This document shows positions 52,932 to 63,985 of a stretch of DNA of 64,000 nt, piece by piece. Source of the DNA: a virus; IMG/VR virus record IMGVR_UViG_3300023196_003770, positions 1 through 64,000 of that record. One strand, written 5' to 3'. Numbering within the stretch: position 1 is the first letter of the stretch; each line of letters starts with the position of its first letter. The notes beneath the pieces are model-generated. The model saw only the letters and a list, made by a program, of their open reading frames with translations. It did not search any database and was not told the origin of the DNA. A program made the position numbers and the translations under genes.

Positions 52932-53310
52932 CTAACATTTCTCCTCGGAGTATACGCTCTCTCATTATTCTCTCTTGCAATTCACGAATATTAGGTTCTT
53001 CTTCAACAACCATGTTATATTTTTGTTTGCTACGATCAACAAATTTAAGAGCCACACGATTAACAGCCATTTTATTTTTCTTAATCTCTGCCATGGCTTC
53101 ATGAACAACCATTTGAACTTCTTTGCTATCAAAGAATAATTTCATTTCTAAAATTTTATCTAATGCCTGTTCGGTATCCTCTAATGCCTCTACAGCATCA
53201 GAAAAATCATCTTCAATAATCATGATAATCCGTGCAAAACGAATTAGATAAAATAATGATGAAATTAGTAGAAATAATAATACCAGAGTTATTAATCCAA
53301 ATATAATCAT
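52903..53310 (-). CDS. membrane-anchored hypothetical protein
   Basis: N-terminal hydrophobic helix followed by a charged helical region. Confidence 0.7.
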   Translation of the reverse strand: MIIFGLITLVLLFLLISSLFYLIRFARIIMIIEDDFSDAVEALEDTEQALDKILEMKLFFDSKEVQMVVHEAMAEIKKNKMAVNRVALKFVDRSKQKYNMVVEEEPNIRELQERIMRERILRGEMLDENTQDFNR

Positions 53311-54503
53311 CCTAATACTTCCTTAAGTGCTTCTGTGTATTGAGCAGCTACTGCCTCATAAGAATATTCCTTCTTAAGAGTTGCAGCTAAATCTTTAGCC
53401 CATTGTTGAGGCATCTGTGGGCTTTCTACAAACTTCTTTACACGATGCTTGAAATCGTCTTCTTTAACATTTGCCCACTTGGCTTTTTCCATCCAAATCT
53501 GATTATCAACTCGGGTTTGATGAATTTGCTCTAAACGATAGTCAAGCTTTACATACTTTCCTTTACCAAGGAACTCTGTATGGGCACTCCAGCCCGTAGC
53601 AATAACTGGAAGACCAGAAGCTGCTGCTTCAAGGATTGGAAGACCAAAACCTTCACCACGAGTTGGAGCAACAAGAGCCTTAATCTTTGGATGCCTATAA
53701 AGAGCAGCTACTTCATTATCACTCATATCTCCATGAAGAAGATAGAACTTTGGAAACTCTGCGCCTTTCTTAATCTCCATCGTAAGTTGCGCCAATAGAT
53801 TTGTAGTTCTAAGACGATCAACTACTGTATGACGCCCAGTATTTGTCTTTATTACAACGCCAACGTCTGGATTATCTTTGAACTGTTCTGCTAACCACTT
53901 AACCGTATAAAATATATTCTTACGATCATTTTCTGGATTATTACCAGTTATCTGTCCAAATACAAGAAAGTTAAAATCTGTCTTGAGTTCTAAATCAATT
54001 TCTGATAGCTCAGGTGTAGCTACAGCATCAATAAATGCTTCTGGAATAACAACAACCTTGGTCTTTACTTCGCCGCTATTTGCAAATACTTCCTTAACAA
54101 ACTCTGAAGGAACAATTATAAGATCCATGCGATTAATAGCTGATATCCATGCAGGATTACATACGTCGCCTTCAACACCTGCCGTTATTCCAACGTTATA
54201 GTCTGCAAGAAAAGGGTTCCATTCATTTGGTAACTGTAGCTGTAAAGAAACGTCATATTTATCTCTCTTGCCAGCAGCTTGCAATAAACGACCAATCAAT
54301 CCATCTTGAGCATATGCATCAACGTGCCAAGGAGTAGCGCCCCATGGAAGAGGCTCTGTAACAATATCAATATTTCCAGTCTTATCTGCCAAATCAAATA
54401 GCCAACGAGCTATCTGACGAGCATGAACTCCATAACCGCTAGCCGTTAATACTGGACCACGAAGAATTACTGTTTTCTTTGTCATTGCTATATCCCTTAT
54501 CAC
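53307..54503 (-). CDS. glycosyltransferase, GT-B / GT4 family
   Basis: SGYG.HAR, IIVPSEF, RKNI, TRGEGFGLPILEAAASGLPVIATGWS. Confidence 0.9.
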   Translation of the reverse strand: MIRDIAMTKKTVILRGPVLTASGYGVHARQIARWLFDLADKTGNIDIVTEPLPWGATPWHVDAYAQDGLIGRLLQAAGKRDKYDVSLQLQLPNEWNPFLADYNVGITAGVEGDVCNPAWISAINRMDLIIVPSEFVKEVFANSGEVKTKVVVIPEAFIDAVATPELSEIDLELKTDFNFLVFGQITGNNPENDRKNIFYTVKWLAEQFKDNPDVGVVIKTNTGRHTVVDRLRTTNLLAQLTMEIKKGAEFPKFYLLHGDMSDNEVAALYRHPKIKALVAPTRGEGFGLPILEAAASGLPVIATGWSAHTEFLGKGKYVKLDYRLEQIHQTRVDNQIWMEKAKWANVKEDDFKHRVKKFVESPQMPQQWAKDLAATLKKEYSYEAVAAQYTEALKEVLG

Positions 54504-56104
54504 TTAATATTGATCAACTTGTTAGCAGGAGCTGGATTAATACCGGTAAGCTTCCAACGCTTAAGAGCACCGGTTTCTTTCCTTGTCTTATAATCTTCTA
54601 CACACTTTAACATCGTATCATGCCAGCTTTGAACCATATTTTCATACTTGAACTCATGGTCAAGATATTCAGCAGCCTTCTCTCTAAACTCTGCCTTCTT
54701 CTCAGGCGTCCAACCATATACTTCCATAAAAGCATCTGCCACTTGACGTTCCGTGCAATAGTCTTCAAAGATATAAGGAACCATTTGTGAACCAACCAAT
54801 GAACGCTTTGCTGGTTCAATAGCAACGCCGTATTGATAACCATTGCGATAATCTTCTGCTTGACGTGTTTCGCCACCGGTCTTAAGAGCAATGATTGGCT
54901 TGCCAACCTGTAATGAAATAAGAGTAGAAAGACCAAACCCTTCATTCTTAGCTATGTTAACACAAACGTCTGCAAGGTTATGCATAACATTCATTTGTTC
55001 AAATTGAAGACGATCATTTGAGAACCAAACGTTATCGTTTAATCCAAGCATATCAGACACGGCAAGAAGATTTGGACCTTCCATATCATTTGGATCTGTA
55101 TGCATGATTAGTACTGCATTACGGTGTCCTTCTTTCTTCTCAAGGTCATCAAGAAAGGTCTTCCAACCAAGAAGAACATCGTTTGGCATTTTGCGTGTAG
55201 CATTACGATTAATCCAAAGAGCCTTAAACCAGTCAGCTTTTGCGCCAAAGTTCTGTTGCTTAAGATGATTAATTTGTTCTTCTGGAAGAGGGTTATAAAC
55301 CTGCTTTGGGAATGTATGGGGAATGTAGTTAGTCTTCTCTGGGAAATGAGGTTTAACCATTTCAAACGTTTTATATGAAAGGCAATTGATTAGATCGGTG
55401 CTTTCATACCATGGGAAGTTAAATGCTGGATATGGATCATTATCCCAAACGTGCCAATAGACGATTGGGCATACTTGATGGATTTCATCTTCCATTTCCC
55501 AAAGCCACGTAAACTGACGAGGATCTGTAAACAAGAAAATTGCGTCTGGTTGTTCTGTAATAAGAAGCTGACGAATGAGTTCCTTGCTTCCAAAGCCGTC
55601 TACAGGCTTTACAATGAAGTCAGGATTGACAGCTATCGTATCATACTTTGCGTGCTTCATAGCGCCGCCTAAGCAGCGGAATGACCATTGACCGGTCTTG
55701 ATAAGACCATCAATCAGGAAACGTGCTTGGACGCCTACACCCGAGGGAGCTACATAACTTATATTATTTCTAATATAACCAGACTATATCATCATATGAT
55801 TATCATATGCTGGGCGCTGTCGGATCATTACCATAAGCTTTTAAGCTTTTAGGTTAACCGTAGTCGTTGAACCTTTCTCACCGTTTCCGGACAGAGACTT
55901 GGCTGCTGATTGTCCAATCATCATATTTTTTAAACATTCACGTTTGTCGTTTCCAACTGCGTTGTAGTATATGATACTTAAGGAGTTTCCAGCAATTCAC
56001 CCAGTTTTACATCCACTAACTCAACTCAATGGATGATCACTTAACGTGATTACTTTATATTTCTTTTTGAAATTGAATGCGGTCAAGAAATCATTATCAC
56101 TCAT
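54500..56104 (-). CDS. glycosyltransferase, GT4 family; two exons (56104-56029 and 55752-54500), 442 aa after splicing
   Basis: Splicing gives MSDNDFLTAFNFKKKYKVITLSDHP-L-APSGVGVQAR..., in frame with the track ORF 54500..55660; motifs NRN..RK and EGFGLS.L.SL..GKPII. Confidence 0.9.
55753..56028 (-). mobile_element. group I intron, 276 nt, no internal ORF
   Basis: P1 exon CAUCCAU pairs with GUGGAUG (terminal U.G); P10 GAGUUA/UAGCUC; P3 CUGGGUG/CGCCCAG; P4 UUGCUG/CAGCAG; P7 GACUA/UAGUC; terminal G; removal restores the reading frame. Confidence 0.93.
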
Positions 56105-56969
56105 GTATAAAATCCTTTATTTTTTTTAGCATATCTTCTTTATTTTTTTGCATTTCATAAGCCCATACTATCATGATAGAATAACCTGCTTCTTTTATTA
56201 TGTTTTTTCTTTTTTCATCTGATAACCATATATCTTCAGCAGTTTTGTTTTTTACTTTATGAAAGTAATTTGCCGGATATAACTTTGGGTTTGCGTGCCA
56301 ATAATCGCCATGATATTCAATTATCTTATTTGAGTCTGGTAAAAGTATATCTGCAAAATATTTTACTTCTTTTATTGGTAGTTTTACTTCCAATTCTGCT
56401 GTTGAATTAATGCTTTGAACATAATCAAAAAGCTCTTGTTGTGGCTTTGATATTTTTCTGCGTTGAGCCAACATATATGCATTAGTGACTCCATATTTTT
56501 TACTCAAAGACGTTTTCTGTTTATCTTTTTGAGCTTTTGTAAGGCAGCGCCCAAACATGGGATTATTAGTTCCGGAAAATAAAACTTTCATATATTCTTT
56601 TTTACATTCCGAGCTGCATACTCTATGCTTTGCGGTTTTTTTATATCTCGGCGGATAATACATCTCAGTATCACAACAAAAACATTTAGCTACAAAACCA
56701 GATTTATCATTAGTATGAGATGTCCATTTGCTATAGGCTCCAATTAGAACATAGTGTTTTGAAGCACATGAACGATTACAAAAATTTCCTTTTTTATATC
56801 TAATACGTTCAAAGCTTTTTTTACAACATAGACAAGTTCTTGTTTCTAATATATTTTTATTACTTTTTTCTCTTCTGTTTTTACGATGTTTTACGAGACA
56901 GGCACGAGAACAAGTCTTTTTTTGAGGATTTCCTTCAAATTCTTTACGGCAGATATTACATGTATTCAT
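56097..56969 (-). CDS. free-standing putative homing endonuclease: zinc-ribbon repeats + NUMOD3-like + Vsr/DUF559-like nuclease domain
   Basis: Three CxxC...CSxxC repeats; GTNNPMFG; S.PQ..L, FADI....IIEYHGDYWH, D..R...GY....VW.YE. Confidence 0.85.
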   Translation of the reverse strand: MNTCNICRKEFEGNPQKKTCSRACLVKHRKNRREKSNKNILETRTCLCCKKSFERIRYKKGNFCNRSCASKHYVLIGAYSKWTSHTNDKSGFVAKCFCCDTEMYYPPRYKKTAKHRVCSSECKKEYMKVLFSGTNNPMFGRCLTKAQKDKQKTSLSKKYGVTNAYMLAQRRKISKPQQELFDYVQSINSTAELEVKLPIKEVKYFADILLPDSNKIIEYHGDYWHANPKLYPANYFHKVKNKTAEDIWLSDEKRKNIIKEAGYSIMIVWAYEMQKNKEDMLKKIKDFIHE

Positions 56970-56975
56970 ACACGA

Positions 56976-56984
56976 TAAATATAT
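56976..56984 (-). promoter_or_regulatory. putative phage late-promoter motif ATATATTTA carried by the endonuclease cassette
   Basis: Exact copy, 6 nt upstream of the endonuclease ATG. Confidence 0.5.
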
Positions 56985-56997
56985 GTGGAGTAAGAGT

Positions 56998-57063
56998 TCA
57001 CGTGATTACCTTATACTTCTTCTTAAAATTAAAAGGGGTGAGAAATGTGTTCTCTTCTGACAT
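56998..57063 (-). pseudogene. stranded original 5' end of the GT4 gene (MSEENTFLTPFNFKKKYKVIT*)
   Basis: SD AGGAG 6 nt upstream; 14 of the last 15 residues match the N-terminus encoded from 56104; ends at the shared GTAATCACGT. Confidence 0.88.
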
Positions 57064-57128
57064 TACTATCTCCTACTATGATGATGATATTTTCACTAAT
57101 AATGACGCATATGTTTAGAATTACAATA

Positions 57129-58112
57129 TCAAAGATTTAATGCTCTATCATAATCTGCGTCATACATCATATGTGCTAAATCTTTAAATGTGGTCTTCGG
57201 TTTCCAGCCCAATATTCTTTGAGCTTTGGCACTATCACCAAGTAATATTGGAACCTCATGGGGACGATATAAACGTGCATCAATCTTAAGATGCTCTTCA
57301 ATATTTAAACCGGCGTGTTCAAATACAACTTCAAGAAATTCTTTAACCGTATGCGTCTCGCCAGTTGATATAACAAAATCATCACCTTTTGGTTGCTGAA
57401 GCATTAACCACATTGCCTCAACATAATCTCCAGCAAATCCCCAATCTCTCTTTGCTTCAAGATTTCCAAGATACAACGTTTCCTGTTTCCCAAGCTTTAT
57501 ATTAGCTGCTGCAAGAGTAATCTTGCGAGTAACGAACGTCTCACCTCTTACTGGACTTTCGTGATTAAAAAGAATGCCCGAAGAGATATGAAGCCCATAA
57601 CCTTCACGATAGTTGCGGCAAAGATTATGTGCATATAATTTAGCAGCCGCATAAGGTGAAGCCGGTGTCATGCGAGTTTCTTCATTTTGAGGAACTTGTA
57701 TATTGTCACCATACATCTCTGATGATGATGCTTGATAGAACTTAGCTTCTGGACAGATTAGCCTATAAGCCTCTAGAAGCTTCAATACGCCGCCACCTAC
57801 TACGTCCAGGGTTTCCTCTGGAACCTCGAAAGAAACCCGCACGTGGCTCTGTGCAGCCAGGTTATATATCTCGTCTGGTTTATACTTGGCGAGAAGAGAA
57901 TAGATGGAACTTGAATCGGTCATATTTCCATATTCAAGTTTAAAATTTGGATGACTGAATATGTTAATATCATCAAGACGATCTGTTGTTATAAGAGAAG
58001 TTCGCCGCTTCATTCCTATAACACGATAACCTTTATCAAGAAGAAACTTTGCTAAATAAGAGCCATCCTGACCTGTTACGCCAGTTATAAACGCAGTCTT
58101 TTGTGTTGACAT
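57129..58112 (-). CDS. gmd: GDP-mannose 4,6-dehydratase
   Basis: ITGVTGQDGSYLA, YNLAAQSHVRVSF, QASSSEMYG, SPYAAAK, GILFNHESP.RGETFVTRKI, RDWG.A.DYV. Confidence 0.96.
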   Translation of the reverse strand: MSTQKTAFITGVTGQDGSYLAKFLLDKGYRVIGMKRRTSLITTDRLDDINIFSHPNFKLEYGNMTDSSSIYSLLAKYKPDEIYNLAAQSHVRVSFEVPEETLDVVGGGVLKLLEAYRLICPEAKFYQASSSEMYGDNIQVPQNEETRMTPASPYAAAKLYAHNLCRNYREGYGLHISSGILFNHESPVRGETFVTRKITLAAANIKLGKQETLYLGNLEAKRDWGFAGDYVEAMWLMLQQPKGDDFVISTGETHTVKEFLEVVFEHAGLNIEEHLKIDARLYRPHEVPILLGDSAKAQRILGWKPKTTFKDLAHMMYDADYDRALNL

Positions 58113-59086
58113 TATACTCCTCTTACATTTGGATATGCCACTTTAAACCAATCACAGGTCTTCTTTAAAGCAATATCAAATGGAGTATAGTCTTCTAGCC
58201 GCCAACTAGTTTTTTCTAATAATCTTTTATTTGAAGATGGTTTTCGAAACTGTCCAGATGGCTTATCTGTATTAAAAACAAGATCCCCCTCATATTCTAA
58301 ATATTCTAAGAGTTTCTTGGCAACTGAACCTATTGAGTGTTCTTCTGTATTGCCAATATTAAGAGGTTGATCTTCGTTATATTCTTCTGAAACCTTAACG
58401 AGAATACGGGCTATATCACCAGCATATGTAAACTCTCTTAATGGACGACCATCTCCCCATATTTCTACCGTAGGTTTATTATTAAGTTTAGCTTCCCATA
58501 TCTTTCTCATTAGAGCTGGGATAACGTGCCCATCCTCTAAATGGAAGTTATCATATTCTCCAAATAGATTATTTGGAATGACAGTGATATAGTTCACCCC
58601 ATACTGCTTACGATAAGCCCTTGTTTGAACGTCTAGCATCCTTTTAGCGTAAGCATAGCCAAAGTTGCTATCGTGCGGTGGTCCCATGTGAAGCTGGTCT
58701 TCTGTAAGCGGATAGGAGACATATGGAGCATCTGGATAAACACAGGTTGATAATACGGAAACTACTTTAGGAACAGAATATTTCAAACATGCATATAAAA
58801 CGTTTGTATTAATGGCAATATTTTCGTCATAAAAACTACCAACAAAATCTGTATTTGCTTTAACACCGCCGACTCGTGCAGCTAAGTGAAAGACGCATTT
58901 AATTTTGCTATATAATCCTTGTCCATCAGCCGCTTCATGCAATTGAAAATATCTTTCAGTTTCTTCTTTATATAAGAAATTCACTTCTTTTCTTGTAGGG
59001 GAAATGACTTGAGCGTTTGAATTGCTAAGATGGGAAATTAAAGCTTGTCCGACCAAACCAGCGCCCCCGGTAATTAAAATAGTCAT
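58112..59086 (-). CDS. fcl: GDP-L-fucose synthase-like epimerase/reductase
   Basis: TGGAGLVG, HLAARVGG..AN, STCVYP, YAYAKR, HVIPAL, WGDG.PLREF. Confidence 0.9.
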   Translation of the reverse strand: MTILITGGAGLVGQALISHLSNSNAQVISPTRKEVNFLYKEETERYFQLHEAADGQGLYSKIKCVFHLAARVGGVKANTDFVGSFYDENIAINTNVLYACLKYSVPKVVSVLSTCVYPDAPYVSYPLTEDQLHMGPPHDSNFGYAYAKRMLDVQTRAYRKQYGVNYITVIPNNLFGEYDNFHLEDGHVIPALMRKIWEAKLNNKPTVEIWGDGRPLREFTYAGDIARILVKVSEEYNEDQPLNIGNTEEHSIGSVAKKLLEYLEYEGDLVFNTDKPSGQFRKPSSNKRLLEKTSWRLEDYTPFDIALKKTCDWFKVAYPNVRGV

Positions 59087-59088
59087 AA

Positions 59089-59214
59089 TTATTCCAAGAT
59101 GATGAAAGCGAAATGTTTTTTCTCAGTGGTATCAATTCCTGTTTCTTTAACTTTATAATTGTTTTCTATCCAACGATAAACATTATAATTAATTGCCCAT
59201 ATGCCAAAAGTCAT
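59089..59214 (-). CDS. 41-aa ORF MTFGIWAINYNVYRWIENNYKVKETGIDTTEKKHFAFIILE (below track cutoff)
   Basis: SD AGGAGGT upstream; fills the gap between the FdtA-like gene and fcl; stop 2 nt before the fcl ATG. Confidence 0.5.
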   Translation of the reverse strand: MTFGIWAINYNVYRWIENNYKVKETGIDTTEKKHFAFIILE

Positions 59215-59236
59215 GTTAATACCTCCTGTAATCCTC

Positions 59237-59620
59237 TCATATTGAATTCAAGTAAGTTTGATAGTCCCTGATATAATCATTCGGATCATATTCTTCCGAA
59301 GATAATGCTAGTAGTGTAGTATTTTTTTCTAGAAATGTTAAAGTAGTCCAGGTCATTCGTTTTTCAAACACATACATTCCTTCTTTAAGGATAAAACTCT
59401 GTGTTTCTTTGCCGTCAAACAAATCGATTTTTATTCCGCCTGATAAACAAAATAATACTTGATCTGTTGCTTTATGGGCATGTTGTCCTCTAACATCATT
59501 AATTGGGACATCTTTAACATAAAACATTCTTTTAGGGACAAAAGTAAGATTGTGAAAATCAAAAGGAAACAATGCTCCTCTTGCATCACGATTACTTTTT
59601 AGTTCAGATAATATATTCAT
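59237..59620 (-). CDS. FdtA/QdtA-family sugar 3,4-ketoisomerase (cupin)
   Basis: DARGAL, KRMFYV, RGQHAHK..Q...C, L.L.S..YD..DYIRDY. Confidence 0.9.
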   Translation of the reverse strand: MNILSELKSNRDARGALFPFDFHNLTFVPKRMFYVKDVPINDVRGQHAHKATDQVLFCLSGGIKIDLFDGKETQSFILKEGMYVFEKRMTWTTLTFLEKNTTLLALSSEEYDPNDYIRDYQTYLNSI

Positions 59621-60647
59621 TGTTTCTAACTGAGAAAAGAAATTCTTCTACTCTCTGTATATCTGATTCACTTAAAAATGGATGACAAGGTATCGATATA
59701 ATTTTATCGGACACTCTCACTCCAGTTATGTTAGCATTTATACCATGCAGAGCCGGAATATCTGTGATATGGTTTTGATAATGAATCATATGAGGAATTT
59801 CTCGCTCATTCATTTCTTTTATAACCGATGCTCTGTCTTCAAACATTGATGTAAACAAATGATAAACAGACTTTGTGTTAACTTTGTATCCTTGAATTAT
59901 TTTCTTGTATCTAGAAGCTATTTCTACTCTACGATCATTTAAGGATTCAAAATGATTTAGCTTTGCCAACACAACAGACGACTGAAACTCGTCCATTCTG
60001 CTATTGATTCCAACAAATTCTATGTTGCCTTTGTTCTGACCATAGAATCTGAACTTTTTATAAAACTCAGACTGTTCTTTATCGTTCAAACATATCATCC
60101 CACCATCGCCCATGGAACCAAGAGGCTTTGTTGGATAAAAACTGAAAACAGAATAGTCTCCGACCTTACCAGAGCCAGAGCCAGTTGATTGAGCGCAATC
60201 TTCTATTAAGATATGATTGTTATCTTTACAGTATCTTTTGATACTCTCAATGTCGCAGTTGTTTCCAAATAAATGAACCGGTATAACTATTCCATTTTTA
60301 ACTTCCGGAAGTTTACTTGGATCAATTGTCATTGATGCATCAACATCTACATAATGAATATTGTCCGTAAGATTTCGACACGCCACAGATGTTGGATATG
60401 CTCCAAAGTTTGGCAGTATTACTGGCATACCAGGCTTAATTAAAGTTTTTACTAACATCATTATGGCATCAGTGCAATTTTTAACACCAACACCATAAGA
60501 CATTCCTATTCTTTTCGAAAACTCGAATTCTAGTCTTTCAAGCTGCGGTCCTAAAAGGTAAAACCCGGCTTCATACACTTTAGCTAATTCAGAATTAATT
60601 TGTTCCTTATATAGCTCATTTTCAGTTTTGAGATCCGTAAATTTCAT
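59604..60647 (-). CDS. DegT/DnrJ/FdtB-family PLP-dependent sugar aminotransferase
   Basis: IPVHLFG, IEDCAQ, SFYPTK.LG..GDGG, GINSRMDE.Q. Confidence 0.92.
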   Translation of the reverse strand: MKFTDLKTENELYKEQINSELAKVYEAGFYLLGPQLERLEFEFSKRIGMSYGVGVKNCTDAIMMLVKTLIKPGMPVILPNFGAYPTSVACRNLTDNIHYVDVDASMTIDPSKLPEVKNGIVIPVHLFGNNCDIESIKRYCKDNNHILIEDCAQSTGSGSGKVGDYSVFSFYPTKPLGSMGDGGMICLNDKEQSEFYKKFRFYGQNKGNIEFVGINSRMDEFQSSVVLAKLNHFESLNDRRVEIASRYKKIIQGYKVNTKSVYHLFTSMFEDRASVIKEMNEREIPHMIHYQNHITDIPALHGINANITGVRVSDKIISIPCHPFLSESDIQRVEEFLFSVRNNEYII

Positions 60648-61561
60648 AGTGCTTCTTTCAAATAGAGATCTAAATTTTTAATTAAACCATATGGCGAAAA
60701 ATATTCGTCATAAAGCTTTTTATTTGAGTAACATACTTCTATGACATTATGAGTACTCAAGTAATGTTCTATTATTTCATGGAGAAATGAAATTTGATTA
60801 GCCTCTATCACTATAGAATGTTTGCGCCAGTCAACAGATTTTTCTAACGGCAGCTTTAAATCAGAATTGATTATAATTGGTATTCTTCCTAAAGCCAATG
60901 TTTCGTATAAGCGATAAGAAAAATTTCCATTCCCTCTTATACAGATTCCAAACAATCCACTTAATAGATTTTCAACAAACTGTTTACGTGCTACATTTTT
61001 ATCTGAAACTTCTGGCGCCCAAAACCCATTACGATATAAAAAGTTTCTGCAAAGATGAAAATTTTCTTCTAAAGCTTTAAAGATATGATATCTGTGTGGT
61101 TCATTAAAATTTCCACAAAAGCTAATGGCAGAAAGTTTTAAGGCTTTTACGGTAGGTTCAACAAAATCAAATTCTTCACAGAAAGCTGGCATTATAATTT
61201 CATTCTGTTTAATTGTGCTTTTATAAGCTGATGTTCTAAACAAAAAGACTTTATCATTCGGAATGATAATCTCTCCATCATAATCATCATTATAAAAAGC
61301 TATGATAATTTTATCATTTGAAATTGCTTCTTTAAATGTTTTTGTTTGTAAATCCTTATGCCCATTTGACCATTTATAAGGAATCATAACAAAGTCCGCA
61401 GCTTGAATATCTGTTAATTCTAGAAGCTCCGCTCGGTGACGTAAGAAAGATATATACTCGGGCTTATCTTCAATCCGATCATGTGTCCAAAAATTTTCAG
61501 ATTTTGCAACCGGATCTCTGTCTTCAAGATTGTAATATATATTATGCATATCACAGCTCAC
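60644..61561 (-). CDS. exostosin-like glycosyltransferase (GT47)
   Basis: ISFCG, F.ICIRG.GNFSYRLYETLALGRIPIII....LP....DW. Confidence 0.8.
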   Translation of the reverse strand: MSCDMHNIYYNLEDRDPVAKSENFWTHDRIEDKPEYISFLRHRAELLELTDIQAADFVMIPYKWSNGHKDLQTKTFKEAISNDKIIIAFYNDDYDGEIIIPNDKVFLFRTSAYKSTIKQNEIIMPAFCEEFDFVEPTVKALKLSAISFCGNFNEPHRYHIFKALEENFHLCRNFLYRNGFWAPEVSDKNVARKQFVENLLSGLFGICIRGNGNFSYRLYETLALGRIPIIINSDLKLPLEKSVDWRKHSIVIEANQISFLHEIIEHYLSTHNVIEVCYSNKKLYDEYFSPYGLIKNLDLYLKEAL

Positions 61562-62156
61562 GTTCTAAAAGAAAACTATAGTAATCATTCGTCCACGAAT
61601 GTTGTTGTTTTATTTTAAAGCCATTAGAACTCAATAGTCTTTTAAAGCTAGAGATCGCTAAAACTAATTGATATGTTTTCCCAAAATAAGGAGAATCAAT
61701 TAAATTTAATTCATGATTTTTTCGAATACATTGACGATGTAATATTACTTTTGATGTTGCTTTTTTTAAAACTCTATCTAAAACTTGTTCACCATTTTCC
61801 AGAACATCAATAAATGCATTCATAAGAACTGTATCATACTCTTTCACGAATTCAAAATCAGAATCTTTAGCATCAAAAGCCACATATGATAGTTCTGGGT
61901 GCATAACCATTGAAACGTTTTTTATAGTACCTTCAAGGTCTGCACCAACATATTTAAAATTATTTACTAACAAGCTGGCTTCCGCAGAACAACAACCTAA
62001 ATCGATCATTTTTTTAGGCTGTGCAATGTCTATTAGATTTTTTAATATGCCAACATGATCTGAACTCAAAAGCTTAGGAAATAAAATGCCTCGGGCACCA
62101 TCTAACATTCTTGCATAAGAATCTTCGTTGGTCCAACATGATTTATCACTTTGCAT
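61551..62156 (-). CDS. class I SAM-dependent methyltransferase
   Basis: MIDLGC motif I, YVGAD, YD.VL. Confidence 0.7.
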   Translation of the reverse strand: MQSDKSCWTNEDSYARMLDGARGILFPKLLSSDHVGILKNLIDIAQPKKMIDLGCCSAEASLLVNNFKYVGADLEGTIKNVSMVMHPELSYVAFDAKDSDFEFVKEYDTVLMNAFIDVLENGEQVLDRVLKKATSKVILHRQCIRKNHELNLIDSPYFGKTYQLVLAISSFKRLLSSNGFKIKQQHSWTNDYYSFLLEREL

Positions 62157-63045
62157 TATATTCCTCTAATTCGTCCATAAATCTTTTTTGCAAGATATCG
62201 ATATTCTTTTTTATAGTATCTGGATGTTCAAGGTTAAATTTTTTAGTAAAAGCTTCTCCACGGACTTGAGGCTTGAACTCATGAACTCCAAGAAATTTCT
62301 TTTCTACTTCAAAGCGTTCATAGTCATTCTTTGCATTAACCCATTGCATATAAACGTTTTCAAAGTAGTTATCTAAGCAATTTTCTCTACTAACCTTTGC
62401 TTTATAATATTCTATTTTATTTGCAACTTGCTTTGGAAAAACATAGGAGTAATGATACATCTGAATTCCATGATCATAATACAATGTATCGCTATCTAAA
62501 TGTTTTTTAGGAAGAGGAGTTATACCTGATGGTGGATTAATAGTTGGTGGTCTATGAGTTAGCCACGTGGCACCTGGATAATATTTGAAGACTCTTAAGA
62601 AGTTATCTTTCTTCTCTTCAAATCCTCCTATAACACGATTTAAACCACCATAGAAACTGGCGCTACGTATTCCTACGCTTGTATATTTTTCCTTCTCCAA
62701 TAAAGAATAAAGCTTTAATATGTCTTCGCCTTTAAAAACTTCATCAGAATCTAGATTCCATATATAATCAATGTCCGAATCAATGTTTTTCATGTAAGCT
62801 TTACATTGATCGTCTTTTTCTTCAAATTGCCCATGAACAATTTTTATTTTCTTTTCTGGATCTGGAAAGTTATGAATGATATCGTTTGTTTTATCGGTTG
62901 AAGTACAACGACCTTTTTGTTGCCAAAACTTAACCGGTCCTTCTGCAATTAAAATTTGTTTAGCATATGGATATACAGATTCCAATGCTTCATGCAAAAC
63001 ATAATCACCTTCAAATACAATCATACCAAATGCAACTTTAAGCAT
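62146..63045 (-). CDS. glycosyltransferase, GT-A / GT2-like
   Basis: L.SVYPYA.QILIAEG, STD.T, DYIW.LDSDE (DxD), YHYSYV. Confidence 0.82.
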   Translation of the reverse strand: MLKVAFGMIVFEGDYVLHEALESVYPYAKQILIAEGPVKFWQQKGRCTSTDKTNDIIHNFPDPEKKIKIVHGQFEEKDDQCKAYMKNIDSDIDYIWNLDSDEVFKGEDILKLYSLLEKEKYTSVGIRSASFYGGLNRVIGGFEEKKDNFLRVFKYYPGATWLTHRPPTINPPSGITPLPKKHLDSDTLYYDHGIQMYHYSYVFPKQVANKIEYYKAKVSRENCLDNYFENVYMQWVNAKNDYERFEVEKKFLGVHEFKPQVRGEAFTKKFNLEHPDTIKKNIDILQKRFMDELEEYNAK

Positions 63046-63046
63046 A

Positions 63047-63985
63047 TCACTTTTTCTCCTGACGTTTTTTTACTAGTAATGCCATATCTTTTGTGAGGTC
63101 AAAATATTGATCATAAAGTTGCTTGATATATTCTGACGTTTTTTCTGGCACGCCCCAGATCCACTCATTTCTATATGATGAACGATACGTATTATTTTGT
63201 AAATCTGGAACAAAATGAGCAAAATGAAAGAAATATAAATCCTGTTCTCTTCCTTCCCAAACTAGCTTACTATCTTTGTATCTATGAAATGTTACATTCC
63301 AAGGCGCCAGATGCCCGACCAACTTATCAATAATACAAATTTTATCTTTTCCAAATATTAATGGAAATAGCTCTAAATATTTTTGGTCCCCACATTTTCC
63401 ATATTCATTAGCATATGGATTATTTGGATAGAGTAACAAATCTTTCCATAATTTTGCACAAGAATTTCCGTTAAAATCGTTCTTAAAGTAAACAATCCCA
63501 ACGTTATATTCTCCAACAGATGGTATGTATGTAATTCTGTGTCTTACAATTCCGATGCTTCTGTTTGCTATCTCTTCATAGATGCCCGATAGATCACGAT
63601 AGAAACACAAATCAGAATCAGCATACATTATATGCTCTAGACGAAGTATGTCCAAACAGTACCAGCAAAGATAGGGCGCTAGCGCCCAGCAATATTGAAC
63701 GTATCTTGGGTCTTTATTTTGATTAGATGCATTTGAAATAGCCTCTTGTGAAGCTGGCATACTTTCTTTGCAATATTTTAAGAAAAAGTCTGCGTTCTCA
63801 ACTTCTTCTAATGATAAAGCTATGAGTCTAGAATCATTCAGTCCGTTGACAATATTTTCAGCTGTTTTATCTAAGCAAAGGACGTATAAAGAAAAAGGAT
63901 TATTTTGTGTTTTCTTAAGAGACTCAAAAAGACACAATAACTTGATTATGTAATCTTTGTCTGATATGGCACAAAGATTTTTCAT
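63047..63985 (-). CDS. glycosyltransferase, GT-A fold
   Basis: L..SL, LYVLCLD, YADSDL.FY (DxD), YNVG.VYF, GDQKYLE, APWN, FFHF. Confidence 0.82.
   Translation of the reverse strand: MKNLCAISDKDYIIKLLCLFESLKKTQNNPFSLYVLCLDKTAENIVNGLNDSRLIALSLEEVENADFFLKYCKESMPASQEAISNASNQNKDPRYVQYCWALAPYLCWYCLDILRLEHIMYADSDLCFYRDLSGIYEEIANRSIGIVRHRITYIPSVGEYNVGIVYFKNDFNGNSCAKLWKDLLLYPNNPYANEYGKCGDQKYLELFPLIFGKDKICIIDKLVGHLAPWNVTFHRYKDSKLVWEGREQDLYFFHFAHFVPDLQNNTYRSSYRNEWIWGVPEKTSEYIKQLYDQYFDLTKDMALLVKKRQEKK

Follow-up and report, generated by a model that had tools for sequence, protein, structure and literature searches.

A gene for a GT4-type glycosyltransferase (GT) in the 64,000-nt stretch of viral DNA analysed here (positions 1 to 64,000 of IMG/VR virus record IMGVR_UViG_3300023196_003770, hereafter the window) is interrupted by a group I intron, and its short first exon overlaps the end of a Vsr-like endonuclease gene. 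We think it likely that the endonuclease gene, exon 1 and the intron, which has no open reading frame (ORF), together form a composite selfish element that spreads by collaborative homing, and that a truncated second copy of exon 1 upstream of the nuclease gene is the stranded exon of the resident gene. All coordinates refer to the window, and all features described lie on its minus strand (Table 1); loci in other contigs carry L numbers.

Two versions of the beginning of the GT gene flank the nuclease gene. The upstream one, copy A, has a Shine–Dalgarno sequence (GGAG) and an ATG at 57063, encodes MSEENTFLTPFNFKKKYKVIT and stops at a TGA (57000-56998). Its ORF has 21 codons, compared with 26 full codons in a resident exon 1, the 3′-most 16 nt being absent, and over 62 nt it is 96.8% identical to exon 1 of the intron-free loci L002, L003, L004 and L009. 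The downstream one, copy B, begins at ATG 56104 in an 8-nt overlap with the nuclease stop and encodes MSDNDFLTAFNFKKKYKVIT... / MSDNDFLTAFNFKKKYKVITLSDHPL.... The two share 42 of 60 aligned nucleotides, including the same GTAATCACGT (57009-57000 and 56053-56044), and their local alignment score of 49 lies well above the maximum of 25 reached in 200 shuffles. Most differences are synonymous: ∼9.8 of 10.2 synonymous sites have changed, compared with 8.2 of 49.8 non-synonymous ones. Lysine codons are AAA or AAG in ratios of 39/6 in the nuclease gene, 6/25 in GT exon 2, 0/4 in copy A and 3/1 in copy B, and the GC content is 30% in the nuclease gene and 41% in the GT. Copy B and the nuclease gene are thus alike in low GC and AAA-rich usage, and copy A and the GT body are alike in their use of AAG. 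A first-pass annotation of the window had described the duplication, the position of the shared segment, the mainly synonymous differences and the contrast in lysine codons, all of which we reproduced. Its proposal that the downstream copy is a replacement start was likewise supported, copy B having the composition of the nuclease gene and serving, as far as the sequence tells, as the working start of the GT. The overlap between this start and the nuclease stop, also part of that annotation, is present both in the window and in relatives.

The same annotation had let the second copy continue into the GT and had called the element splicing-free. Both points need revision: copy B meets a TGA (56023-56021) after 27 codons and the uninterrupted ORF of the GT body (55660-54500) is in another frame, so that a continuous GT requires the removal of the 276-nt intron. 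This intron matches Rfam RF00028 over the full model (positions 1-253) with 85.3 bits (gathering score 50; E 1.1e-21), in an alignment that begins 25 nt too far upstream, on a chance hairpin in the exon. We placed the 5′ splice site after U56029, the terminal G of the intron at 55753 and the beginning of exon 2 at 55752, because nine close relatives encode ...KKKYKVITLSDHPLAPSGVGVQARF... without interruption, because the P1 helix then has its U.G pair at the splice site, and because of the terminal G itself. In P1, the guide GUGGAU (56016-56011) pairs with the end of exon 1, AUCCAU; the U.G pair recurs in seven of seven related introns, and the adjoining pair is A-U in four and G-C in three. 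For P10, read directly from the sequence, UAGCUC, the six bases with which exon 2 begins, offers a possible partner for GAGUUA (56022-56017), and the pairing covaries in L106, where UAAUGC stands opposite GCAUUG. Across the seven introns, 40 of 82 consensus pairs show compensatory two-sided changes. The proposed junction restores ...SDHPLAPSGVG..., which the nine intron-free close relatives encode without a break, and the same boundary rule recovers the intron-free protein in a second lineage (L055 compared with intron-free L015). From this restored motif and from strong purifying selection on exon 2 (ratio of non-synonymous to synonymous substitution rates (dN/dS) 0.058), we infer that the intron is spliced out.

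Other ways of pairing or splicing did not hold up. Splicing from the upstream copy was rejected, as copy A ends in a TGA and is without the AUCCAU strand of P1. An alternative partner for the guide, UCCAC (56986-56982), lies after the stop of copy A and would give a C-G pair instead of the U.G. Inside copy B, there is a perfect small hairpin, AUCAC-GUUAA-GUGAU (56036-56050), made possible by the TTA AGT spelling of a Leu-Ser codon pair; this was Rfam's choice for P1, and it is not conserved in L055, L097, L106 and L108. Elsewhere, in L166, ∼1.2 kb upstream of a Vsr-domain gene that is unrelated, the intron profile has a weak partial match (1629-1775; E 1e-6; core positions 138-291).

A Vsr-like (EDxHD-type) domain forms the C-terminus of the nuclease, which also has three cysteine-rich modules and a NUMOD3-like motif. 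In PHROGs, the C-terminus matches an unnamed family (E 7e-17) and the N-terminal cysteine-rich 186 residues match an 'HNH endonuclease' family (E 4e-12). We collected 31 homologues, several of which their source names very-short-patch-repair endonuclease; P0002 and P0003 are 87% and 77% identical nucleases. Among 21 aligned homologues, Pfam recognizes MTES_1575 in 13, DUF559 in nine and NUMOD3 in six, with the single nuclease sequence scoring below the MTES_1575 threshold (16.5 versus 38.2 bits). A profile built from the 21 homologues matches the solved E. coli Vsr structures (1odg, 1vsr and 1cw0; E 0.008-0.011) and the I-Bth0305I chain 3r3p, a 'Mobile intron protein' (E 0.058). A search of solved structures with the single sequence returned ryanodine receptor matches (E ∼0.5), which we discarded as chance. 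D207, E218, H225 and D251 are invariant in the 21 homologues and align to the Vsr catalytic positions, which in Vsr-like homing endonucleases are given as Asp51, Phe62 (Glu in that family), His69 and Asp97 (PMC2677866). The profile match and these residues place the protein among the Vsr-like (EDxHD-type) homing endonucleases, in agreement with its earlier description as a Vsr/DUF559-like nuclease with cysteine-rich modules. Three intact 290-codon copies of the gene give dN/dS values of 0.15-0.21. In four homologues (P0007, P0009, P0021 and P0024), the nuclease ORF runs through exon 1 in another frame and into the intron core, with tails such as ...SSADVKLGELLE, and gene, exon and ribozyme therefore physically overlap. 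Such tails could be mistaken for a nuclease encoded inside the intron; frame translations of L106 and L108 show that they arise by read-through of exon 1 in another frame.

Table 1. Features of the interrupted GT locus, in the order of transcription (window coordinates)
Feature	Position	Strand	Remarks
GDP-mannose 4,6-dehydratase gene (gmd)	58112-57129	minus	Pfam E 3e-127
Copy A, best read as relic of resident exon 1	57074-56998	minus	Original Shine–Dalgarno sequence and ATG, then TGA at the junction
Spacer from relic stop to nuclease ATG	56997-56970	minus	28 nt; left edge of the cassette; ACTCCAC and ATATATTTA
Free-standing homing endonuclease gene (Vsr-like by profile)	56969-56097	minus	290 aa
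Copy B, supported as working exon 1	56104-56029	minus	76 nt; MSDNDFLTAFNFKKKYKVITLSDHP plus first base of a Leu codon
ORF-less group I intron	56028-55753	minus	276 nt; 76 nt into the GT gene
Internal guide	56022-56011	minus	P1 and P10 strands
GT exon 2 (GT4-type glycosyltransferase body)	55752-54500	minus	Spliced GT would have 442 aa

The presence of the element varies among relatives. Of 79 loci with a related GT, two do not include the 5′ end and 77 could be scored: 74 are uninterrupted, with neither intron nor nuclease, and three are interrupted by this intron (L010, L014 and L055). The nine closest loci with a complete 5′ end (L002-L007, L009, L011 and L018; 89-96% GT identity) all join the MSEENTF start directly to LSDHPLAPSGVG and have no nuclease gene, second copy or intron. 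This is the cassette-free allele that the first-pass annotation had predicted, and none of the nine shows the constellation named there as contradicting it, a nuclease-free relative with both copies. In the lineage of the window, 12 loci (the window included) have a 5′ end, nine of them with neither element and three with nuclease, intron and relic.

A corresponding picture emerged from the side of the nuclease. Among the best 80 of 561 confirmed loci of its family, 14 contain a near full-length match (L096-L109). The intron follows the nuclease gene directly in 11 of these according to an nhmmer intron profile, two are without it and L109 was equivocal. At every one of the 12 loci inspected, the nuclease gene borders or overlaps exon 1 of the GT from upstream, which does not fit the earlier idea that the cassette inserts inside the 5′ end of the gene. 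This tight arrangement recurs across lineages in which nuclease identity is 35-45%. Two loci show the expected stages of nuclease decay beside a conserved intron: in L055 (4728-5683), the gene is frameshifted into frames of 231 and 87 aa, and in L014 (5549-5683), it is reduced to a C-terminal remnant of 44 aa. A free-standing endonuclease gene thus adjoins an ORF-less intron in the same gene, and the two co-vary among relatives.

Stranded exons are present in further loci. L010 (IMG/VR 3300035670_008805) and the metagenome contig L176 (Ga0172363_10099617) have the layout of the window with essentially the same junction, ...GTAATCAC(G/A/AC), then T(G/A)AACTC.... The relic of L010 has a 6-nt in-frame deletion, and that of L176 has one extra base, which lengthens its ORF until it overlaps the nuclease start in an ATGA. 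None of the three carriers has a broken relic ORF, and all three relics terminate 16 nt short of the point of intron insertion. L097 (2071-4217) has a full-length relic, MIEESDLISIPNVIVPQKSKTLMLSEHPFH, closed by a stop codon (…LMLSEHPFH, stop), which ends at about the insertion site and is followed by two tandem Vsr-like nuclease genes (239 and 295 aa), a second exon 1 (MPIEQDDLQLITIPPKKHKILMLSDHPL) and the intron, a layout that suggests repeated invasion or nuclease turnover at one site. This relic is recognizable as protein (tblastn to exon 1 of L064, E 9e-4 in a small database) and not as DNA (score 27 versus a shuffle maximum of 28). The remaining 11 nuclease loci tested contain no relic. 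The resident exon 1 is the best reading of the relic, two independent cases of which end within ∼16 nt of the intron site. Since the nuclease of relatives normally lies upstream of exon 1 and not inside it, the relic would be a capture scar at the intron site rather than the target of an insertion at codon 21/22.

Several comparisons point to mobility. Measured against L010, the window shows a synonymous divergence of 0.37 for the nuclease gene but 1.63 for GT exon 2. Exon 2 and the next gene of the window are 93-95% identical to intron-free L002 and ∼80% identical to the cassette carrier L010, and exon 2 is carrier-like only in its first ∼11 nt (55752-55742; GCT CCC TCG versus GCA CCA TCT/TCA), the bases that fit the intron guide. 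These divergences show the ancestry of the cassette to be younger than that of its flanks. Judged by the alignments, the unit that is gained or lost is the nuclease gene with exon 1 and the intron, together with ∼11 nt of exon 2.

We propose the following sequence of events. The target would be the conserved ...LSDHPL/APSGVG stretch of intron-free GT alleles, which the nuclease would cut at, or close to, the point where the intron inserts; in a carrier genome, the intron would split the target and block cutting, and some synonymous changes in the flanking exon bases possibly add protection. Repair off the carrier genome would then copy intron, exon 1 and nuclease gene together, as in collaborative homing. 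At the first entry into the lineage, good homology may have existed only on the exon 2 side, and an illegitimate join would then have linked the left side of the break, after the loss of 16 nt, to donor DNA that lies upstream of the nuclease gene. Today, the relic could act as a near-identical left homology arm for homing into genomes of the MSEENTF type, and its Shine–Dalgarno sequence, ATG and short ORF possibly drive translation of the nuclease as a leader ORF. Such a leader role is plausible because the nuclease start has no Shine–Dalgarno sequence of its own, the relic ORF is intact in the three carriers and L176 shows ATGA coupling. The strong synonymous divergence between copies A and B would prevent recombination that deletes the nuclease gene. 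We also considered a 12-nt near-palindrome just past the insertion site of the intron-free allele as the core target; three synonymous changes alter it in carriers, and it was set aside because it is not conserved in the nine intron-free alleles.

A more far-reaching version of this proposal is that of a 'one-armed' homing element, which would enter on exon 2-side homology, swap the 5′ end of the gene and reuse the stranded start as a leader for the nuclease, with the synonymous divergence of the copies selected against both recombination and self-cutting. Because the cassette brings its own start codon, exon 1 and intron, such entry needs homology only on the exon 2 side. We hold this version tentatively, as possible and short of probable.

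Several observations weigh against our preferred reading of a composite homing unit. The nuclease proteins of carriers differ by 11-24%, and therefore do not demonstrate a very recent transfer. Up to the very junction, the relic of the window is like cassette-free genomes and contains no donor-like tract; common descent combined with recombination in the flanks may therefore be all that unites the window, L010 and L176 in this arrangement. We found no donor with an MSDNDF exon 1 and without a relic, and the founding illegitimate join can therefore not be reconstructed. At its gathering threshold, Rfam recovers the intron in just three of 20 related loci, and the other seven intron calls depend on our own nhmmer profile. 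The position of the cut is suggested by analogy with I-Bth0305I and by the ends of the relics. Finally, in L102 (1644-2790) and L105 (2995-4010), an intact nuclease gene immediately precedes a GT that has no intron, which would mean that the intron is dispensable for self-protection in some lineages or that these enzymes cut elsewhere; both share the TTA AGT spelling of Leu-Ser with the working exon 1 of the window, which fits the idea of protection by recoding.

These two loci lend some weight to a different account, in which exon 1 itself, between codons 21 and 22, is the homing site of a cassette that carries a recoded, immune replacement start, the intron being an unrelated neighbour. Relative to cassette-free alleles, the window does contain a 956-bp insertion after codon 21, and the 16 nt before the intron differ at six sites, all of them synonymous (TTAAGTGATCATCCAT versus CTTTCGGATCATCCAC in L002). 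A precedent exists in fungal mitochondria, where endonuclease ORFs arrive with a substitute end of the gene (PMC3630166). In addition, AGY spells the Ser that precedes Asp-His in 12 of 17 copies of exon 1 linked to a nuclease, compared with nine of 68 Ser codons in the 74 nuclease-free alleles. The rows of this count are not independent, and shared descent of the cassette explains the bias equally well; recoding may contribute to self-protection or merely mark common descent. Against homing into exon 1 stand the 11 other loci in which the nuclease gene lies upstream of a whole exon 1 with no relic, and the position inside the exon is therefore not the normal insertion site of the nuclease. Moreover, the relic of L097 reaches the intron site and not codon 21, and the divergence of copy B spans the whole of exon 1 from the ATG, with one codon fewer, which looks like a diverged donor rather than local recoding. 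The linkage of nuclease and intron in 11 of 14 loci also argues against an unrelated neighbour, and we regard this account as unlikely.

Less probable still is a history of two independent events, in which the intron was resident in a diverged GT lineage, the nuclease landed upstream of it later by intronless homing, and the duplication is a by-product, without a role in mobility or expression, of recombination between two phages. It is common for free-standing endonucleases to cut hundreds of base pairs from their own gene and to carry flanking DNA along (PMC2988022), endonuclease turnover has been proposed as the origin of such layouts (PMC10448857), and in L014 and L055 the intron has outlasted a decayed nuclease. 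The lineage of the window, though, contains no relative with only the intron or only the nuclease (nine have neither, and three have both plus the relic), the tight 5′ linkage repeats across lineages with 35-45% nuclease identity, and two independent cases have relics that end close to the intron site. We find it hardly credible that the duplicated segment arose as an assembly chimera or through a sequencing artefact: the window does come from a metagenome-derived virus contig estimated to be 24% complete, but the same order of parts and the same junction are found in three contigs from different samples, with independent substitutions in L010 and L176 (the 6-nt deletion and a 1-nt difference at the junction).

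Among the known phage cases of collaborative homing, the one in a cyanophage is F-CphI with the psbA intron. Others are T4 mobE with the nrdB intron (PMC2790892), the ICP1 terminase and T3/T7-like phages, listed together with a cyanophage in PMC10448857. As in these systems, the nuclease gene of the window lies outside an ORF-less intron, beside the 5′ exon; presence and absence vary among relatives, and joint inheritance would be expected. Unlike them, the window has a Vsr-like/EDxHD nuclease instead of an HNH, T5orf172 or Endo VII-type enzyme, its host gene encodes a glycosyltransferase, the nuclease gene overlaps a very short exon 1, so that the gene start travels along, and a relic of the resident exon 1 is kept upstream; cleavage at the intron site is, in the window, a prediction. 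With Vsr-like/EDxHD endonucleases, the protein shares a C-terminal domain with the Asp, Glu, His and Asp positions, an N-terminal region set apart for DNA binding, a phage host and an association with a group I intron, the similarity to solved Vsr and 3r3p chains being weak and seen in sequence profiles (E 0.008-0.06). I-Bth0305I, from the recA intron of phage 0305phi8-36, cuts beside its insertion site with a footprint of ∼60 bp (PMC3239194), and endonucleases of 'fractured genes' are members of the Vsr-like family (PMC2677866). Unlike I-Bth0305I, which is encoded in the P1 loop of its intron, the gene in the window is free-standing upstream of exon 1.

A second parallel is provided by the mobile endonuclease ORFs (mORFs) of fungal mitochondria, such as those in Glomus atp6, atp9, cox2 and nad3 and in Allomyces atp6, which bring in a foreign C-terminal end of the gene, the native end surviving as a remnant (PMC3630166). 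There too, an endonuclease stands between a diverged working copy of a gene end and a native-like dead one, and in the window the native copy matches element-free relatives, the inserted copy being far more diverged. In contrast to the mORFs, the layout in the window is mirrored to the 5′ end, occurs in a phage and involves no in-frame fusion to the host gene, and its unit is coupled to a group I intron that needs to be removed, unlike the splicing-free fungal type. A limited literature search, which is no proof of absence, turned up neither a 5′ exon that is duplicated around a free-standing endonuclease next to a phage intron nor an intron in a phage glycosyltransferase gene. The kind of element is thus already known, from phage collaborative homing and from fungal ORFs that replace gene ends, and the present arrangement is new.

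Elements related to the spacer of the window precede the nuclease genes in L010, L097 (twice), L098, L099, L104 and L106; elsewhere in the window, we found none. In L098 (2940-2975), L099, L104, L097 and L106, a conserved element of 20-25 nt (roughly CCACNCTACTATTTATAA) precedes the nuclease start, and in L098 it forms an 8-bp hairpin of −20.9 kcal/mol that none of 200 shuffles equalled. Hairpins that precede Vsr-like endonuclease genes have been noted before (PMC2677866). No significant hairpin was detected 5′ of the nuclease start in the window, L010, L176 and L097, and the element of the window is degenerate. The consensus of the relatives' element has no match in the window at ≤3 mismatches, and a looser pattern has two (0.46 expected; equalled by nine of 100 shuffles). 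The first-pass annotation had also given the cassette its own promoter, for which the window offers no support: ATATATTTA (56984-56976) occurs six times where 3.6 copies are expected, a number reached by 16 of 100 shuffles, and was dropped as a promoter for want of enrichment, and a sigma-70 scan returned 11 sites versus 8.7 expected, with a single terminator-like site within gmd.

The window is part of an 89-kb virus contig whose genes include a terminase, a primase and a baseplate wedge gene. The invaded GT lies in a cluster of sugar-nucleotide and glycosyltransferase genes (53307-63985) with gmd, epimerase/reductase-like and aminotransferase-like genes and a second GT4 immediately 3′ of the invaded one. 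A DNA search of named phage genomes gave no close relative, with matches only to gmd (cyanophages) and to the intron core (Staphylococcus and Lactococcus phage introns). Two extra genes, for a 455-aa HAD/nucleotidyltransferase-like protein and a 171-aa protein, separate gmd from the relic in L010 (2810-4635) and L176 (1-560), and in intron-free L003, too, gmd and the GT lie apart, by ∼2.8 kb. The ∼50 nt 5′ of the relic ATG are similar across carriers, although the upstream gene context differs.

For annotation, the consequence is that gene callers would miss 56 residues of the GT and may call a false gene of 21 aa. More broadly, these loci extend the Vsr-like/EDxHD family to a free-standing, exon-overlapping position, and a sugar-transferase gene joins the hosts of phage group I introns. 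They also provide a natural series in uncultivated aquatic phages: 74 never-invaded loci, 11 with nuclease and intron, two with a nuclease and no intron, two with an intron and a decaying nuclease, and four contigs with a stranded exon of two independent origins. As the stranded exons would mark the point of break repair, they yield a concrete, testable prediction of the cut site, and they hint at a route of entry without upstream homology. The series bears on an open point, the origin of the partnership between endonuclease and intron; one-armed entry, if true, would explain how such pairs originate and spread between phages whose upstream genes differ.

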